Part shown: one piece after another, positions 12,229 through 19,314 of the stretch
Numbering within the stretch: position 1 is the stretch's first letter
How the letters are laid out: each line of letters starts with the position of its first letter
Source of the DNA: an uncultured Eubacteriales bacterium
GTDB taxonomy: Bacteria > Acidobacteriota > Aminicenantia > Aminicenantales > Saccharicenantaceae
Assembly: GCA_964423315.1 (NCBI GenBank)
Contig: CAYREO010000005.1
Coordinates: forward strand, 31,834 to 95,833
DNA: 64,000 bases
Direction of reading: 5' to 3'
Notes under the pieces: generated by a model
Database searches by the model: none
The model's input: the letters and a program-made list of their open reading frames with translations, nothing else
Told to the model about the DNA's origin: nothing
Position numbers and translations under genes: made by a program

Positions 12229-12257
12229 TTGACATCCCCTGGGGGCCGCACTAGACT
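12229..12257 (+). promoter_or_regulatory. Candidate sigma70-type promoter upstream of the BNR-repeat gene
   Basis: TTGACA (12229-12234), 17-nt spacer, TAGACT (12252-12257), about 100 nt before ATG 12361. Confidence 0.35.
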
Positions 12258-12360
12258 CTTCGTCGTCATGGGAAGATGCGACCCTGAGCGAGATGCGGGC
12301 CGGTCCCGGACCTCAGGGGGCAAGCAGCTTCTTATCTCAAAGAGAAGGGGAGCGGTCCTG

Positions 12361-15042
12361 ATGACGAAGATGTCGATAACGATCGAGGCGGGCGTTCTTG
12401 CGGTCCTGGTTTTCGGGGTTTTATCGGCCGCCGGTCCGCCGACCAGTCTTTCCGTCGCGCCCGCAATGCCGTCGGATCAGCAGCGAAGTCCGCTTCTCGA
12501 CTCCTGGCCGCGGCATGTCGACCATCGTGAAAGAACCGGATTCCGCCTGGATTGGATCTCCGTCGGCCCGGTCATGAACAGCGCCCGGGCCGCCTCGGTG
12601 AAGGGCGATCCGGACAGCCCAGGGACCCTTTATGTAGCCTTCGGTCCTGGGAACCTCTGGAAGACGACCGACAACGGACTGACCTGGAGGCCGATCTTCG
12701 AGAACCAGTCCACCTTGGGCATCGGGGATTTCGCCCTGGCCCCGTCGCGACCCGACACGATCTGGCTGGGATCGGGCGTCAACCTCAAGAAGCCGCGCAA
12801 CTTCACCATGCCGGGGACGGGCGTCTTCCGATCCGACGATGGCGGGTCGACCTGGCGGAACATGGGTCTTCACGACTCCTATCACATCGGGAAGGTCGCC
12901 GTTCACCCGAAAAATCCCGACATCGTGTTCGTGGCCGTCCACGGGCATTACTGGACGACCAACCGCAACCGCGGCCTCTATCGGACCCTGGACGGCGGCC
13001 GGACCTGGGAGCATGTCCTGTTCGTCGACGAAAGGACCGGGGCCAATGAGGTCGCCATGGCTCCCTCCGATCCCGACATCCTCTACGCGACGACCTGGGA
13101 GATCCATCCCGGCGTTTCGGGCCCCGCGAGCGGCGTCTACAAAAGCGAGGACGGCGGAGCAAGCTGGCGGCGGCTCGGGGGAGGGCTTCCGGACGGCCCG
13201 AAGACGGGGCGGATCGGCGTCGATGTCTCCTGGACCGATCCCGACAAGGCCTATGTCCTTGTCGACAATCTCAATATCAGCGACACCCGGGGCGCCGAGG
13301 TCTACAAGACGACCGACGGCGGGCGGACCTGGGCCCGGACGCACCGGGACGACCTCCTCATCTTTCCCGGGATCGGGTGGTACTTCACGGATATCTATGT
13401 GAATCCCAAGGACGACGAGGAGATCTTCGCCCTCGGCGTCCGAGTCGCCCGTAGCAGGGACGGCGGCCGGACGTTCGGGCTCATGGGCGGGAACGTCTTC
13501 CATCTCTTCCCGAACATCGCCGAGACCCTCCACCTCGACCACTGCGAGATGTGGATAAATCCGCGAGATCCCGACCATCTGGCTCTGGCCAACGACGGCG
13601 GGCTTTATGTCAGCCATGACAAGGGCGGGAGCTGGCTCCATCACAACAACCTTCCGGTCGGGGAGTTCTACACCGTTTCCGTGGACAACCAGGACCCGTA
13701 CATGATCTACGGGGGGACGCAGGACGATTCCTCTGTTTACGGCCCGGCCCGGGAATGGGACCCCCGGTTCCCGGACGGGTGGCGCTACGTCTGGCTCGAC
13801 GCCTGGTCCGGAGGCGACGGTTGCGTGACTTTCGCCGATCCCGGCGATCCGAATACGGTCTACTTTTCGTCGCAGCACGGCGGCTTACGCCGCAAGGACA
13901 TGCGGTCGGGGCGTTCGGTGCCCATCCGGCCGCGCCTGCCCAAGGGGCATCCGGGGCGCCTGGAATACAGTTTCATCACGCCCTATTTCCTGTCGCCGCA
14001 CAACCGGCTGACGCTCTATCACGCCGGCAACTTCCTCTTCAAGAGCCTCGACCGCGGCGATACCTGGCGTCTGATCAGTCCCGACCTCTCCCGGTCCTCC
14101 GATCGGGAGCGGACGTCCGTGGCCGCGGGTGCCGCCGCCGAATCGCCGCTCGACCCGGGGCTTCTCTTCGTCGGCATGGACCGCGGCGCCTTTTGGATCA
14201 GTCCGGACGACGGCCGGAGCTGGATCGAGAGATCGAACGGGCTTCCGAACCGCTATATCCGGAGCATTCGTCCCTCGCGCTTCGTCCGGGAGCGCGTCTA
14301 TGTCGCCGTCCCCGGCATCAACGACGATGATCTCGGCTGCCACCTGTTCGTCACCGAGGACCTCGGGGAGACATGGATACCGATCCGCGGCGATCTTCCC
14401 GATGAAACGGCTTACGTCGTCCTGGAGGACCCGAAGAACGAGAACATCCTGTACGCCGGCCTGCTCCGCGGGGTTTATATCTCGACCGATCGAGGCCGGA
14501 GCTGGTCGCTTCTCGGACCGAACATGCCCGCGGCCGCGGTCTCTGACCTGGCCATCCAGGAGAGGGAACAGGATCTCGTCGCCTCGACCTACGGGCGGGG
14601 GATCTATGTCATGAACATCCGGCCCATCCGCGAGGCTTTCGCAGGCGGGGGACCACCCGTCGCCGCCCGACTCTTCGACCCGCCGCCGGCCCGGCTGCCC
14701 TGGATCAATGACACCCATCGGGACCCGCGGCTGAGCACGGTCGAAAAGGTCCCGATCACCTTCTATTTGCTCCGCGATGCCGATGTGACCCTCCGCGTTC
14801 TGGATGCCGCCGGCAAAACGATATGGGCGAAGGACATCGCGGGCAAGAAGGGGTTCAATCAAATCCTCTGGGACCTTGTCGTCCGGACCGCGGACAGCCC
14901 GGAGGCCTATTTCACCCGTTACCGGGAATTCGCCCCGGCCGGAGAACACACGATCAGGATATCGGGCAAGGGGATCGATCTCGGCGCCCGTTTGATCATC
15001 CGGGAGCGAGAAACGCCCCCCGATCCCGTCATCATCGAGTAG
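12361..15042 (+). CDS. BNR/Asp-box repeat protein (sialidase/sortilin-VPS10-like beta-propeller), secreted
   Basis: Start at ATG 12361 (MTKMSITIEAGVLAVLVF signal). At least 7 Asp-box motifs (SxDxGxTW: DNGLTW, DDGGSTW, DGGRTW, DGGASW, DGGRTW, DGGRTF, KGGSW, RGRSW). TAG stop. Confidence 0.7.
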   Translation: MTKMSITIEAGVLAVLVFGVLSAAGPPTSLSVAPAMPSDQQRSPLLDSWPRHVDHRERTGFRLDWISVGPVMNSARAASVKGDPDSPGTLYVAFGPGNLWKTTDNGLTWRPIFENQSTLGIGDFALAPSRPDTIWLGSGVNLKKPRNFTMPGTGVFRSDDGGSTWRNMGLHDSYHIGKVAVHPKNPDIVFVAVHGHYWTTNRNRGLYRTLDGGRTWEHVLFVDERTGANEVAMAPSDPDILYATTWEIHPGVSGPASGVYKSEDGGASWRRLGGGLPDGPKTGRIGVDVSWTDPDKAYVLVDNLNISDTRGAEVYKTTDGGRTWARTHRDDLLIFPGIGWYFTDIYVNPKDDEEIFALGVRVARSRDGGRTFGLMGGNVFHLFPNIAETLHLDHCEMWINPRDPDHLALANDGGLYVSHDKGGSWLHHNNLPVGEFYTVSVDNQDPYMIYGGTQDDSSVYGPAREWDPRFPDGWRYVWLDAWSGGDGCVTFADPGDPNTVYFSSQHGGLRRKDMRSGRSVPIRPRLPKGHPGRLEYSFITPYFLSPHNRLTLYHAGNFLFKSLDRGDTWRLISPDLSRSSDRERTSVAAGAAAESPLDPGLLFVGMDRGAFWISPDDGRSWIERSNGLPNRYIRSIRPSRFVRERVYVAVPGINDDDLGCHLFVTEDLGETWIPIRGDLPDETAYVVLEDPKNENILYAGLLRGVYISTDRGRSWSLLGPNMPAAAVSDLAIQEREQDLVASTYGRGIYVMNIRPIREAFAGGGPPVAARLFDPPPARLPWINDTHRDPRLSTVEKVPITFYLLRDADVTLRVLDAAGKTIWAKDIAGKKGFNQILWDLVVRTADSPEAYFTRYREFAPAGEHTIRISGKGIDLGARLIIRERETPPDPVIIE

Positions 15043-15373
15043 CCTTCGGAGGTCTCTCGAACCGTCCGGGGACCCGTAAGAAATTGCTGCCCATTGCCTA
15101 TCAAGGCCGTAATGAAGAGAATAATGAGTCTAGCGCCGACGGCGAATAGCCCAGCTGAGGAGAAGGCGCGAGATCGCTCGAGACGCCCGGAACTTAGGAA
15201 AATATCACGTATTTTATTTAATATCAATTATTTACAATAAATGTGCAAGAACAGACGAAGGACAGGCTGCCAGGTGGGGGATCGACTTCCGAACAGGTCT
15301 GAGATACAACATCGATAGGGAACAGGCTATCGGTAAACAAAGCAGGCCTCTCAACAAAATGGAACGGATCACG

Positions 15374-15389
15374 AGTCGGCATGCCGACA
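15374..15389. repeat. 16-bp inverted repeat AGTCGGCATGCCGACA, copy 1; candidate non-canonical parS-like centromere site
   Basis: GTCGGCATGCCGAC is a perfect 14-bp palindrome. A near-identical copy lies on the other side of parAB. Same 16-bp TGT...ACA architecture as canonical parS. Confidence 0.4.
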
Positions 15390-15623
15390 ATCGATGAGGC
15401 GGAGCTGTCGTATTAATGTATAAACGCATCATCATGACAGGGACAGGCTCATGAGGCCGATCATAGCGGCCATTACAACGGTCCGGGAGCGGCAAAAATG
15501 GTCATTAATGTGCCGGGTCATGGATCGTTAGAACCAAGCGATTTCAGATAGATTATAAATTTAACAGGCAAAAACGGAAGCCGGTCATAACTGGATGCGG
15601 CGAGCGGTGATGTTGGAACCGGA

Positions 15624-15677
15624 GATATCCACAGTTGCCCATAAGTTGGGCGTCAGGGATATCCACAGATTGTGGAA
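15624..15677. promoter_or_regulatory. Cluster of three DnaA-box-like 9-mers
   Basis: ATATCCACA twice in direct orientation (15625-15633, 15660-15668) and TTCCACA inverted (15671-15677). Each is one mismatch from the TTATCCACA consensus. They sit in an AT-rich region, with a very AT-rich 50-bp tract at about 15200-15250. Confidence 0.3.
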
Positions 15678-15875
15678 TTCTATATCTCATTGAAGCTGAA
15701 CGAATAAGAGCCGCCCTGAAGATTGAGTCGCATAAGAAATATTATGTCAACTAATTAGGCCGGGCTTCAGATACGCTCTGCTTCATATTCCCTTTTGTTC
15801 TCGGGATCCAGTCGAAGGGCGAATTGCGCTTCTTCTGATCATGTTTTGGAGGCCGGGCCGGCTTTGATTTTCTTC

Positions 15876-16739
15876 TTATGCCTGCGCTTTCGGCCCGGCG
15901 GCTTCCTTCTGGCGCTTGATGCGCTCTATGATATCCTGAAGGATCTCGATGATCTCCTGCTTGGTGATCATCTGCTTTTTGAATTCGAGCCTCATCCGAT
16001 ATTTATCCGTGTCGTCAGGGACGAAATTATAAACATAATACTTCAGTTTCTTCGTCTTTCCCTTGAGGTATTTCGCCAGGTCCCGAGTGTCCTCCCGGGT
16101 CAGGCGCCGCTCGGCGATCTCCTTGGTCAGCTGGAGCATATCATCTTCCGTTTTTTGTTTAGCGATCTCGATGATCGTCGTCCTGCTGAAGACGCCTGAG
16201 GACTTCATGATATCCCGGACATGCTGTGGGATCCGGGCGATGGACAGGATCTCGGTGATCGTCGAACGGGCCTTGCCGATCTTCTCGGAGACCTGCTGAT
16301 GGTTGTACCCGTACATGTCGATCATCGCTTGAAGGCCGTCGGCCTCTTCAAAGATATCCAGGTCTTTCCTCTGCAGGTTCTCGATGAGCGCGATCTCCAT
16401 GGCCTCGCTGTCCTCGACCTCCATTTCGATGCAGGGGATCTCTTTGAGGCCGATGTTCTTGGAAGCGATGAACCGACGCTCTCCGGCGATGATCTCGAAC
16501 CGGGCTCCTTTGGAACGCACGAGAATGGGCTCGAGGATGCCCTTGCTGCGGATGGAATCCATCAGCTCTTCGATGTTGCCGAGCTCGCAGCGCGCCTGAT
16601 GCGGGTTGGGATCGATCCGTTCGAGAGGGACCATCCGGATGCGCGGCCCCAAGGACCTTGACGAGATGAGATCGACGAAATGGCCATCGTGTCTCATGGC
16701 GACGGATTCCGGAAGCCCGGATCTTTTTGTTTTAGGCAC
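15876..16739 (-). CDS. parB: ParB/Spo0J partition protein
   Basis: ParB N-terminal box (ILEPILVR...EIIAGERRFIAS) and HTH (QQVSEKIGKARSTITEIL). Overlaps the parA stop by 8 nt. TAA stop. Low GC. Confidence 0.9.
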   Translation of the reverse strand: MPKTKRSGLPESVAMRHDGHFVDLISSRSLGPRIRMVPLERIDPNPHQARCELGNIEELMDSIRSKGILEPILVRSKGARFEIIAGERRFIASKNIGLKEIPCIEMEVEDSEAMEIALIENLQRKDLDIFEEADGLQAMIDMYGYNHQQVSEKIGKARSTITEILSIARIPQHVRDIMKSSGVFSRTTIIEIAKQKTEDDMLQLTKEIAERRLTREDTRDLAKYLKGKTKKLKYYVYNFVPDDTDKYRMRLEFKKQMITKQEIIEILQDIIERIKRQKEAAGPKAQA

Positions 16740-17496
16740 GGTGAATGATCTCCTCGGCGACTTTCCGGTACTGCTCGGCCCCTATGGAGCCGGGCGCATA
16801 GGTGAAGATCGACTCCTTATAGGCCGGGCTTTCTTCGAGCTTGACGCTCTTCGAGATATAGGTCTTGAACAGCTTGTCCCCGAATACTTTGCGGATCCTG
16901 GCAACGACGTCCCTAGCCAAATTCGTCCTCTTGTCGTAGAGCGTGATGAGAACCCCCAGGACTTTGAGATTGGGATTGGCGATCCTTCGAACTTTTTCGA
17001 TCGTTTCCAGGAGGTCATCGGTGCCTTCAAGGCACAGGTAAGATGACTGGATCGGGATCAAAATGTAATTGGCGGCGACCAAAGCATTGAGAGTGATAAG
17101 TCCCAATGTCGGCGGCGTGTCGATGAAGATATATTGGTATTTATGCTTGATGGGCTCGAGAGCGTCCTTGAGCCTGAAGTGACCGTCGAATTCGCCGATC
17201 AAGGAAGGCTCGAGCTTGGCCATCGAGATCTTCGTGATAGCCATGTCGAGCCCCGGAATGTTGGACCGGACGATAACGTCCTCGAGCTTATCGCCTTTCT
17301 TCATTAGAACGTCATAGAGGGATTTCTCGTATTTTTCGGGGCTGGCCACGGTAGAAATGGTGCTGTGGGCCTGAGGGTCGGTATCGACAAGCAAGACCTT
17401 CTTTCCCATCAACGCCATCGCCGCGGAAACATTGATCGATGTCGTCGTCTTCCCGACCCCACCCTTCTGGTTGGTGATGGCAATGATCACATCCAA
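16732..17496 (-). CDS. parA: ParA/Soj partition ATPase
   Basis: Deviant Walker A KGGVGKTT and ParA-type motifs (VLLVDTDPQ). 254 aa. TAA stop. Low GC. Confidence 0.9.
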   Translation of the reverse strand: MDVIIAITNQKGGVGKTTTSINVSAAMALMGKKVLLVDTDPQAHSTISTVASPEKYEKSLYDVLMKKGDKLEDVIVRSNIPGLDMAITKISMAKLEPSLIGEFDGHFRLKDALEPIKHKYQYIFIDTPPTLGLITLNALVAANYILIPIQSSYLCLEGTDDLLETIEKVRRIANPNLKVLGVLITLYDKRTNLARDVVARIRKVFGDKLFKTYISKSVKLEESPAYKESIFTYAPGSIGAEQYRKVAEEIIHRA

Positions 17497-17592
17497 CTCC
17501 CGTCCAAGGCGATATCTATTGTGCCGCAGAGGTTACTTTATAACCAAGGACACAATAAAAATCAAGGAAAATCAACATCCATGAAATTAAAA

Positions 17593-17608
17593 TGTCGGCG
17601 TGCCGACA
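17593..17608. repeat. 16-bp inverted repeat TGTCGGCGTGCCGACA, copy 2; candidate parS-like site upstream of parA
   Basis: 15 of 16 positions match the copy at 15374-15389 (arms TGTCGGC/GCCGACA). It lies about 100 nt upstream of the parA start, embedded in an AT-rich tract. Confidence 0.4.
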
Positions 17609-17859
17609 ATTTTCTTAAATACCACTTAATAAATAAGATAATGTCACAATAAAAGCGCAGCAGCATATTTTCATGAACAGCGTAAGCTGAGTGTCTGAAT
17701 AATAGCGCTTCTATCGGCAACGTAAATAATTGATAATAAACAAAATACAGATATTCTATAACGCATTGAAAACAAATGAATTACGGCCTCATTAAATCTC
17801 CTGAAAAATGAGAATATTGTAGCGAGTGACGCGGGAGGAAATTTTTCATAGAATGATGT

Positions 17860-19314
17860 TTGCATGGTCTGGCGATGCAGAAAGAAACAGTTCCTGGCTT
17901 CTTGAGACGGCTGAACGTTCTCGATACGGCGTTCCTTGTCGTCGGTGCGGTCATCGGCTCGGGCATCTTCATGACCCCGGGGATCATCGCCGCCGGCCTC
18001 CCCTCCCCCGGGCTCCTCCTTCTCGTATGGATCGCGGGGGGCCTCATCACTTTGTGCGGAGCGCTCGCATTCGCCGAATTGGGGGCCATGTACCCGCAAG
18101 CGGGAGGCCAATACATCTATCTTCGGGAAGCCTACGGGCCGGGGGCGTCATTCCTTTTCGGCTGGGGGTTCTTCGGGTTCATCATGTGCGGAGGGCTGGC
18201 CGCCCTGGCCGTGGCGTTCGCTGAATTCTTAGGGGGCTTCTTTCCGGCGCTCTCGACGGAAAATATAATCCTCACGGTCCGCCTCCCCGGTCTCAGCCAT
18301 TCACTTTCGGCCGGCCAGCTGGTCGCCGCCGGGGCCATTCTCTCTTTGACCGCTGTCAATTCGCTGGGCATCCGGTCCGGAGCGGCCATCCAGAATCTCC
18401 TGACGCTTTTCAGGCTGGGTTCGGTCGCCGCCCTCGTCGTTCTGGGCCTCCTTGTCGGGGCCAAAGGGGGAGCGGACAACTTCCGTCTTCTCTTCCCCCC
18501 GGGGCCGGCTCTCCCCGACCTCCTCCGGCCGATCGGGCTGGCCTTGGTCGCCGTTTTCTGGACGTATGACGGCTGGTATGCGGTCAACTGCACGGCCGAG
18601 GAGATCCGCGACCCCGAGCGGACCATCCCCCGAGGCCTGGCGCTCGGGGTCCTGATTGTGACGCTCTGCTACGTCCTGGTCAATGCCGTCTACCTGCTGG
18701 CCCTGCCGATCGAAGAGATCAGGGGGGTTGTCCGGATCGGCGAAAAAGCGGCCTCGGCCCTGTTCGGGGGCGGCGGCGCCGGTCTTTTCGCGGCCGTGGT
18801 CATGGTCTCGATCTTCGGCTGCCTCAACGCCAATATCCTGTACGGTCCGCGGGTCTACTACGCCATGGCCAAGGACGGTCTCTTTTTCCGGTCCATGGGC
18901 CGCTTGAGCCCCCGGTACCGCGTCCCCGCGAACGCCCTGAGAGGACAAGCCGTCTGGTCCGCGTTCCTGTGCCTGTCCGGGACCTATCAGGCCCTTTACG
19001 AGTACATGGTTTTCGCGTTGCTCATGTTCTTCGCGGCCACGGGCGCGGCCGTCATCGTTTTGCGCCGGAAGTTCCCCGGCCGGACCAGACCCTACCGGAC
19101 GTGGGGATACCCCGTCGTGCCCCTGGTCTTCATGGCCATGAGCGGGGCCGTCTTTCTGAGCATCGTCCTTTCCCAGCCGCTCAAGTCCCTGATCGGCGCG
19201 GTCCTGCTCGGGGCCGGATATCCCGCCTACCTGTGGTGGGGATCCCGCCGTCCTTCTTGGTCAACCGGGAACGACAAAAAGGATATCCAGGAACCGCGAA
19301 ATCGCTTACAATAG
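17860..19314 (+). CDS. APC-superfamily amino acid/polyamine permease
   Basis: 12 predicted TM helices and an APC-family N-terminal signature (FLVVGAVIGSGIFMTPG). TAG stop. Confidence 0.8.
   Translation: MHGLAMQKETVPGFLRRLNVLDTAFLVVGAVIGSGIFMTPGIIAAGLPSPGLLLLVWIAGGLITLCGALAFAELGAMYPQAGGQYIYLREAYGPGASFLFGWGFFGFIMCGGLAALAVAFAEFLGGFFPALSTENIILTVRLPGLSHSLSAGQLVAAGAILSLTAVNSLGIRSGAAIQNLLTLFRLGSVAALVVLGLLVGAKGGADNFRLLFPPGPALPDLLRPIGLALVAVFWTYDGWYAVNCTAEEIRDPERTIPRGLALGVLIVTLCYVLVNAVYLLALPIEEIRGVVRIGEKAASALFGGGGAGLFAAVVMVSIFGCLNANILYGPRVYYAMAKDGLFFRSMGRLSPRYRVPANALRGQAVWSAFLCLSGTYQALYEYMVFALLMFFAATGAAVIVLRRKFPGRTRPYRTWGYPVVPLVFMAMSGAVFLSIVLSQPLKSLIGAVLLGAGYPAYLWWGSRRPSWSTGNDKKDIQEPRNRLQ

Follow-up and report, generated by a model that had tools for sequence, protein, structure and literature searches.

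Which DNA does a chromosomal ParB protein use as its centromere when the usual parS sequence is missing? Chromosomal parS sites are highly conserved, mainly TGTTNCACGTGAAACA, and this applies to the great majority of primary chromosomes (PMC7022226). The question is raised by a 64,000-nucleotide stretch of DNA (contig CAYREO010000005.1, positions 31,834 to 95,833) from an uncultured Eubacteriales bacterium which GTDB places in the class Aminicenantia of the Acidobacteriota; we refer to this whole stretch as the window. It carries a parAB partition operon, and a search at up to three mismatches found no canonical parS in its 64 kb. Two 16-bp palindromes flank the operon, and the original prediction had proposed these as a divergent parS cognate to this ParB, holding that canonical parS sites nearby or dispersed copies of the motif would speak against it; no copy was found in the window beyond the two at parAB. 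We consider it likely that the two palindromes are the cognate, non-canonical parS of this bacterium's chromosomal ParABS system. The proposal is backed by conservation of the site beside parAB, by its association with one ParB subfamily across three classes, by constraint on the site where it lies inside a gene, by its raised density near parAB and by a remodelled recognition helix in ParB.

Two palindromes flank the parAB operon

Both palindromes were confirmed, in sequence and position, as originally described. The downstream one (AGTCGGCATGCCGACA, 15374-15389, no strand), the candidate second parS, lies 487 bp beyond the parB stop codon and has a perfect 14-bp palindromic core, GTCGGCATGCCGAC, with a mismatched outermost pair. 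The upstream one (TGTCGGCGTGCCGACA, 17593-17608, no strand), the candidate primary parS, lies 97 bp 5' of the parA start and has two perfect 7-nt arms, separated by a GT centre that is not palindromic. They have 14 of 16 positions in common (positions 1 and 8 differ), where 15 had been counted. Between them lie the Pfam-confirmed genes parB (15876-16739, minus strand) and parA (16732-17496, minus strand), which overlap by 8 bp, so that the palindromes do flank parAB. The inferred parA promoter (17537-17565, minus strand; -35 TTGATT at 17560-17565, 17-nt spacer, -10 TATAAA at 17537-17542) begins 27 bp downstream of the upstream palindrome, whose centre is ~70 bp before the inferred transcription start. 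This promoter was recognised from its conservation in related loci (below), a consensus scan having missed it because the last base of the -10 element is A.

The exact pattern GTCGGCNNGCCGAC (GTCGGC-NN-GCCGAC) occurs twice in the 64 kb against 0.01 expected, and none of 100 shuffles reached two; both sites are <500 bp from parAB and there is no other exact site in the window. This enrichment is lost in the background once two to three mismatches are allowed, therefore only near-exact sites count. The consensus of the putative site is (T)GTCGGC-NN-GCCGAC(A), and it has only the TGT/ACA ends in common with canonical parS.

The upstream site is conserved among Aminicenantes

We compared the window with eight related loci picked purely by ParB similarity (64-95% ParB identity, 73-98% ParA identity). 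The palindrome was present in all eight, and each of the seven which cover the parA upstream region carries it ~100 bp 5' of parA with exact arms and a centre of AT, AC or GT, the two most distant loci included. When the parA upstream regions are aligned the palindrome stays invariant amid AT-rich DNA whose columns average 46% identity, and apart from it only two blocks are conserved: the promoter-like TTGcwT-N17-TATAAA, on which the inferred promoter is based, and the ribosome-binding site. From the palindrome end to the -35 element there are 25-35 bp across the aligned loci, and in one locus (L007) an extra ~80 bp lies between palindrome and promoter, so the spacing is unconstrained, with no fixed phasing. 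The downstream copy was found only in the window and in L001, L002 and L008, its outermost base always degenerate; as it is limited to the closest relatives, the symmetric bracket that had drawn attention to the locus is specific to this sub-lineage and is not a general feature. No canonical parS was found in the related loci at up to three mismatches.

A ParB subfamily with a Thr-Glu recognition helix carries the same site

An exhaustive profile-free search was run over representatives of 50%-identity protein clusters and the best 150 matches were inspected. At least 58 of these 150 have a helix with Thr-Glu in the place of the canonical Ala-Asn (GKSR[ST]x[IV]TE..S[LI]..P....CRxADIxSKSxLL), canonical proteins with Ala/Thr/Ser-Asn and GHAR rank lower in the same search, and by name the Thr-Glu proteins come from Aminicenantes, Acidobacteriota/Thermoanaerobaculaceae and Blastocatellia. 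A metagenome scan for TGTCGGCRYGCCGACA gave at least 120 loci, a set which is pattern-selected and hence biased. Among the 120 loci listed, parA or parB is seen in 19, and no gene families recur near the palindrome more often than ParB and ParA. All 14 ParBs read from these loci, at 37-53% identity to the window ParB, have a Thr/Ser-Glu helix (13 Thr-Glu, one Ser-Glu, none canonical). Relative to the genes, the palindrome takes one of three places: 5' of parA, 20-170 bp beyond parB, or within the parB reading frame at residue ~178, immediately following the recognition helix; in the last case TGT CGG C[GC/AT] GCC GAC A supplies the codons for Cys-Arg-Arg/His-Ala-Asp, which across the family, in Blastocatellia and Thermoanaerobaculia relatives, become C-R-[R/H/Q]-A-D. 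One metagenome locus (L074, 395-567) holds three exact copies of TGTCGGCGCGCCGACA, 78-79 bp apart, directly upstream of parA, an arrangement which looks like a tandem centromere array.

To offset this bias we also examined the DNA around cluster representatives, each from a different Thr-Glu cluster. The exact palindrome lies inside parB in three of these (P0123, P0151 and P0155), with one mismatch in P0136, and with exact arms around an AG centre in P0124 (CRQAD); P0143 has its site, with one mismatch, 85 bp downstream of parB. For P0126 (CRLAD) the in-gene codons are the non-palindromic TGC CGC CTC GCC GAT, and an exact TGTCGGCCGGCCGACA is found upstream of parA in two contigs. There is no site in the 7.8 kb around P0130 or the 8.8 kb around P0122 (Ser-Glu helix, 33% GC), and the contig of P0125 is too short to judge. 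The canonical-helix control P0198 has a perfect TGTTTCACGTGAAACA near gidA and no palindrome, and no canonical parS was found in the Thr-Glu-type loci.

Across the ParB-selected DNA, 20 sites fall in the 59.6 kb within 1 kb of parAB against one in the other 136.7 kb (binomial P = 7e-10), a density ~40-fold higher near parAB than elsewhere. The single site more than 1 kb from parAB is in a Thermoanaerobaculia-type locus (L131, 7561-7576), whose second site, CGTCGGCATGCCGACA, is 2.6 kb beyond parB, with the 3' ends of lptFG and of an aminotransferase gene on either side. In an alignment of five ParB-selected parB genes which encode CRxAD, a single codon is kept in only 8 of 70 degenerate columns that are invariant in amino acid, and the palindrome supplies three of the eight, as Cys TGT, Ala GCC and Asp GAC; judged from this codon usage, the site is under constraint as DNA where it lies inside parB. 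The arms are invariant in sequence whilst the central dinucleotide is free (AT, AC, GT, GC, CG or AG), the pattern of a site for a dimeric protein and not of a structural hairpin.

The DNA-binding surface of ParB is rebuilt whilst its CTPase domain is intact

ParA is a Soj-type deviant Walker-A ATPase of 254 amino acids (NQKGGVGKTT) without an N-terminal helix-turn-helix (HTH), and matches the Pfam families AAA_31 (1e-56), CbiA, ParA and MipZ. ParB, of 287 amino acids, consists of a ParB_N CTPase domain with GERR and ENLQR motifs (86.7 bits), a divergent HTH_ParB domain (54.9 bits against a cut-off of 22.6) and a beta-beta-alpha C-terminal domain; the 287-residue reading is absent from sequence records, where a 273-residue version from a later Met is given (P0001). 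HTH_ParB scores are 55-70 bits in these ParBs against 124 bits in canonical ParB, and Pfam ParB_C, which was detected in the canonical control P0198, was undetected in them even at E <= 10. An AlphaFold2 model of the window ParB (predicted local distance difference test score 81) has a confident beta-beta-alpha unit at residues 235-280, compatible with a C-terminal dimerisation domain, and its best Foldseek match is the Caulobacter ParB-parS complex (6t1f_D; TM score 0.85, root-mean-square deviation 2.3 A). In its ParA, its ParB_N motifs, its HTH and fold and the palindrome beside the operon, the window parAB fits a chromosomal type Ia-like ParABS by sequence and predicted structure; the canonical TGTTNCACGTGAAACA expected of such a system is missing from the window and the related loci.

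The turn and recognition helix of the window ParB (codons 16227-16277, minus strand; residues 155-171) read GKARSTITEILSIARIP, where the canonical form is GKxRSxVANxLRLLxLP and alignments to PDB sequences give GKARSTVANALRLLQLP for Thermus and GKERSTVANALRLLALP for Myxococcus; the GHARALL helix of canonical ParB is replaced by SRTTIIEIAK. In Caulobacter ParB the residues Q162, G170, K171, S172, N178 and R204 are DNA contacts conserved in ParB and Noc, R173 makes a hydrogen bond to guanine 1 of parS, and position 201 reads parS position 6 (PMC7383237). By alignment, in which the mapping is uncertain by one or two residues around position 201, the window ParB retains G170, K171 and R173, changes Q162 to H, S172 to A, N178 to E and R204 to I, and has a basic residue at or beside position 201-202. 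Read this way, the retained Arg matches the retained outer TGT as its presumptive contact and the changed helix matches the changed inner bases. Across 31 aligned ParBs of the three acidobacterial classes, G155, R158, T162, E163 and P171 are invariant, as are the CTPase motifs (G86, E87, R88, R89 and E120, N121, L122, Q123, R124).

Two further features mark the Thr-Glu-type ParBs, neither of them typical of canonical ParBs: an N-terminal motif (R)GLP-x4-MRHDxHFV at residues 15-22 (window 16674-16697, minus strand), with H17, H20 and V22 invariant, which may be a ParA-interaction peptide, and an invariant Cys in PCIE at residue 103 (window 16431-16433, minus strand).

A proposed mechanism and its relation to known systems

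From the sequence and the modelled fold we infer a scheme for ParB binding, CTP-dependent clamping, segregation and autoregulation. The ParB dimer would set its two HTH domains on the two 7-nt arms, where the Arg retained from the G-K-x-R motif would read the G of the outer TGT, whilst the remodelled helix (Thr-Glu for Ala-Asn, the Arg of LRLL lost, no GHAR) would read the GC-rich inner bases. Bound ParB would then take up CTP through its intact GERR/ENLQR N-terminal domain, close as a clamp and slide onto the flanking DNA. The partition complex assembled in this way would be what the Soj-type ParA ATPase acts upon. As the upstream site lies just 5' of the parA promoter, ParB loading there probably autoregulates (autorepresses) parAB too.

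The system is like canonical ParABS (B. subtilis, C. crescentus, T. thermophilus, M. xanthus) in its Soj-type ParA, in the layout of ParB with its GERR/ENLQR CTPase domain, HTH and C-terminal domain, in a 16-bp TGT...ACA palindrome beside or inside parAB, in the TGT-reading Arg and in predicted fold (TM 0.85). It differs in the inner five bases of the half-site, TNCAC in canonical parS against CGGCN here, in Thr-Glu for the canonical Ala/Ser-Asn, and in the loss of the LRLL Arg and of the GHAR motif with R204; Pfam ParB_C is not detected here, and the window operon is not beside gidA/rsmG. In B. subtilis spo0J a parS also lies inside the coding sequence, as in the Blastocatellia and Thermoanaerobaculia relatives, but in the C-terminal linker rather than directly after the recognition helix, and in the window lineage the site is instead outside parB, upstream of parA.

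Noc, the Firmicutes nucleoid occlusion protein which binds the Noc-binding site (NBS) TATTTCCCGGGAAATA, is the one characterised chromosomal ParB-family protein with an evolved new 16-bp palindrome, and it acquired this through few changes in the DNA-binding domain, at 173, 179, 184 and 201 (PMC7383237). The NBS and the site described here both have C as the sixth base after the initial T, and a conserved basic residue (S-[K/R]-[S/T]) here aligns at or next to 201-202, where Noc has R201. However, Noc is a paralogue beside a canonical ParB, has no ParA partner role and has changed R173 to Q, whereas the ParB here keeps R173, replaces N178 (conserved in ParB and Noc), is encoded in the parAB operon and has no canonical partner in the examined loci. 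Secondary replicons such as chromosome II of Burkholderia cenocepacia (gTTTATGCGCATAAAc) or Vibrio cholerae (parS2) also have their own non-canonical palindrome near parAB, and must be orthogonal to the canonical primary system. The system here, unlike these, lies in a housekeeping context (tig-lon-rho, LptFG and MiaB-like genes) and has no plasmid relative above 38% identity. KorB of plasmid RK2 is likewise a ParB-family CTPase on short palindromic operators (OB), is found among the structural matches (8qa8, 8qa9), and has a site at the promoter of its own operon, which suggests autoregulation; it differs as a global plasmid repressor with a 13-bp site, TTTAGCSGCTAAA, a KorA partner and ~25% identity to the window ParB.

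Alternative explanations

Several observations weigh against a centromere. Neither dnaA, dnaN, gidA nor rsmG is present in the 64-kb window, and the orientation of the left-flank genes points towards parAB, not away from it, neither of which supports proximity to the origin (the GC skew of the window is uninformative for origin position). The two ParB-selected loci noted above, of 7.8 kb (L138) and 8.8 kb (L133; Ser-Glu helix, 33% GC), have enough flank and yet no site; variant palindromes were looked for in both and none was convincing. About 80 of the 120 palindrome-selected metagenome loci listed have no visible parAB, and 12 of those without it carry recO-glyQ-glyS (L009, L010, L014, L019, L037, L053, L057, L076, L087, L092, L099 and L116; glyQ 66-86% identical), with the palindrome 5' of recO in some, flanking glyQ on both sides or separating it from glyS in others, or else within glyS or a little beyond its end. 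This second conserved hot-spot would fit parS if the region lies in the origin domain. Many metagenome copies are flanked by A-runs and T-runs at gene 3' ends, which a terminator or another factor would fit too, and the Thr-Glu ParBs and the palindrome could both be mere markers of the phylum, the link between them resting on positional enrichment. CRP/FNR-type dimers recognise 16-bp TGT-N10-ACA sites, and the palindrome might accordingly be the operator of a separate transcription factor of this kind, serving parAB and other genes whilst ParB binds elsewhere. The geometry of the site, its position 27 bp from the -35 element of the parA promoter, the many copies away from parAB with their recurrent group at recO-glyQ-glyS, and the two copies that adjoin a Crp-like gene in one metagenome locus (L121) all favour such an operator, yet we think it improbable. 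A promoter operator does not account for copies inside parB, downstream of parB, inside glyS or between convergent genes, the L121 pair included; the distance to the parA promoter varies (L007), no second locus among those listed has the Crp-like gene, and where the parB codons lose the palindrome a copy is found elsewhere at the operon (L135). It would also leave the remodelled ParB helix and the absent canonical parS unexplained. A Crp-like regulator was accordingly rejected as a recurrent neighbour of the palindrome.

Slightly less probable again is that ParB binds the palindrome mainly as a KorB-like operator which represses parAB, with the true centromeres elsewhere: the sole copy universally conserved in Aminicenantes is at the parA promoter, the ParB-family KorB regulates through palindromic operators, and only one or two sites are seen per locus, but the sites of other classes, within parB or past its end, are placed where no promoter operator could act, and neither a canonical nor any other candidate centromere was seen in the window or related loci. 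The two roles are moreover not exclusive, as plasmid type Ib systems combine centromere and autoregulatory functions. We give the least credence to the palindromes being structural hairpins (bidirectional intrinsic terminators) or a generic repeat (REP-like, that is repetitive extragenic palindromic, or uptake-signal-like) which lies at parAB incidentally. A consensus scan does call the upstream site terminator-like on both strands from its shape of a hairpin with a T-run, the metagenome copies often read AAAAA-palindrome-TTTTT at gene 3' ends, and 15 copies among the loci listed share the further flank cCTTcAAGTatTACTTTAAA. However, in every Aminicenantes locus the upstream site lies between the divergent 5' ends of parA and a permease gene, a position with no transcript to terminate, the downstream site lacks a T-run, and the stem is weak (5-6 bp, -5.5 to -6.3 kcal/mol as DNA). 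The arms, in contrast to those of terminators or species-specific REPs, are identical across three classes without compensatory change, copies in coding sequence have frozen synonymous sites, and away from parAB the ParB-selected DNA has one copy in 137 kb, the two in the 64-kb window both being at parAB. It is the combination of invariant arms with a free centre, proximity to parAB in any context, constraint inside genes, reappearance beside the operon and a rebuilt ParB surface that makes the palindrome centromere-like, and unlike an operator, a terminator or, in the DNA covered, a generic repeat.

Among the metagenome loci listed, the cCTTcAAGTatTACTTTAAA flank is one-sided (cCTTcAAGTatTACTTTAAA-palindrome-TTTT) and is shared by 15 palindromes in 14 soil/peat loci (L013, L040, L053, L064, L065, L077, L092, L099, L117, L121-L123, L125 and one more). 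There is no similarity beyond ~45 bp between these copies, so they are not a miniature inverted-repeat transposable element, and the flank may be the site of a second protein beside the palindrome. In L121 (5890-6082) two palindromes are arranged as mirror images, each with a AAGTAaTACTTTAA flank, between the 3' ends of the Crp-like regulator gene and a LarA-N-like gene.

Genomic setting of the locus

The parAB cassette and its flanks (about 15043-17860) have 47-55% GC against ~65% in the rest of the window, and the locus had been taken for an island. Synteny across the lineage contradicts this: the order amino-acid permease <> parA-parB is common to the eight ParB-selected loci, and three of the eight have rho, lon and clpX or tig downstream of parAB. 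The window has tig, probably lon and rho, then an extra gene before parB (12229-15042, between rho and the region downstream of parB) for a 937-residue BNR/sortilin-Vps10-repeat protein; as rho directly follows parB in L004-L006, this gene is a lineage-specific insertion beside the partition locus. Candidatus Aminicenantes genomes are the source of the ParB homologues at 77-94% identity, the low GC of parAB is a trait common to the lineage, and no ParB among the PLSDB plasmids is >38% identical to the window ParB. The conserved synteny (permease <> parA-parB ... rho-lon-tig) means that parAB is a vertically inherited chromosomal locus of Candidatus Aminicenantes. A mobile island or integrated plasmid module, hinted at by the low GC and a 27-nt inverted repeat, is ruled out by the synteny in relatives, the lineage-wide low GC and the lack of a plasmid ParB above that identity.

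That repeat is AT-rich and 93% complementary, and flanks the cassette outside the palindromes (15209-15235 and 17722-17748), where none is expected by chance. One or two copies of its core, TTTATTATCAAT, are also present 5' of parA in L001-L003. The core fits both a -35/-10 pattern (TTGATA-N16/17-TAT...) and the integration host factor consensus WATCAANNNNTTR, and the right-hand repeat copy probably serves as promoter of the permease gene. Long inverted repeats as cassette ends were looked for and rejected, as only a 27-34-nt AT-rich motif and the palindrome itself align.

Two further non-coding features lie downstream of parB. In the closer Aminicenantes loci three DnaA-box-like motifs, TTATCCACAnnCTGTGGATAT ... 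TGTGGATAA, cluster 200-250 bp downstream of parB (window 15625-15676; L002 4720-4774; L003 7004-7058; L008 617-671), and are perfect in L002, L003 and L008. Possible roles are as a piece of oriC, in DnaA titration or in a promoter regulated by DnaA; the gene orientation in the window lends no support to an origin. A block AGTTGACATAATAnnnCTTATGCGAC[T/G]CA, 55-165 bp beyond the parB stop, is invariant in the window and in all nine related loci which cover the region (window 15724-15752, minus strand; L001 6922-6950; L004 6962-6990; L006 6942-6970; L007 2305-2333; and others), and is kept even in loci with 64-66% ParB identity. It contains a CATAA-N6-TTATG inverted repeat and looks, by its sequence, like an extended -10 promoter (TGnCATAAT). 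Rfam gave no match over the whole window at gathering thresholds, nor over 14950-17900 at E <= 5, and RNAalifold gave -6.7 kcal/mol for the conserved region beyond parB, with no covariation and no conserved structure.

Possible implications for centromere evolution

It is fairly probable that the Acidobacteriota, or at least Aminicenantia, Thermoanaerobaculia and Blastocatellia, have replaced canonical parS with GTCGGC-NN-GCCGAC, read by a rebuilt ParB clade (Thr-Glu, no GHAR, the TGT-reading Arg kept), and that the centromere is often embedded in parB as the codons for Cys-Arg-[Arg/His/Gln]-Ala-Asp, moving to the flanks of the operon when the peptide drifts. In the searchable literature we found no paper with GTCGGCGCGCCGAC or GTCGGCATGCCGAC, or on parS in Acidobacteria/Aminicenantes, a coverage outside which the Acidobacteria entries of Livny et al. 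2007 lie; what the sequences describe is apparently a lineage-wide, indeed phylum-wide, alternative ParB-parS pair that is undescribed there.

To our knowledge the ParB-to-Noc switch is the only well-studied natural change of specificity in the ParB family. If our reading is correct, the acidobacterial system would be a second, independent natural experiment in the evolution of ParB specificity, in which residues conserved even between ParB and Noc have changed, and it would point to concrete specificity residues. DNA-labelling methods would gain an orthogonal ParB-parS pair, it would be clear why a search for canonical parS would overlook the centromeres of Acidobacteriota, and the site could serve as a marker of the origin domain for thousands of genomes from uncultured organisms. 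A centromere that sits within the gene of its own reader protein and evolves together with it is of interest in itself, and the change as a whole would represent a natural, phylum-scale switch in the specificity of the primary-chromosome centromere.

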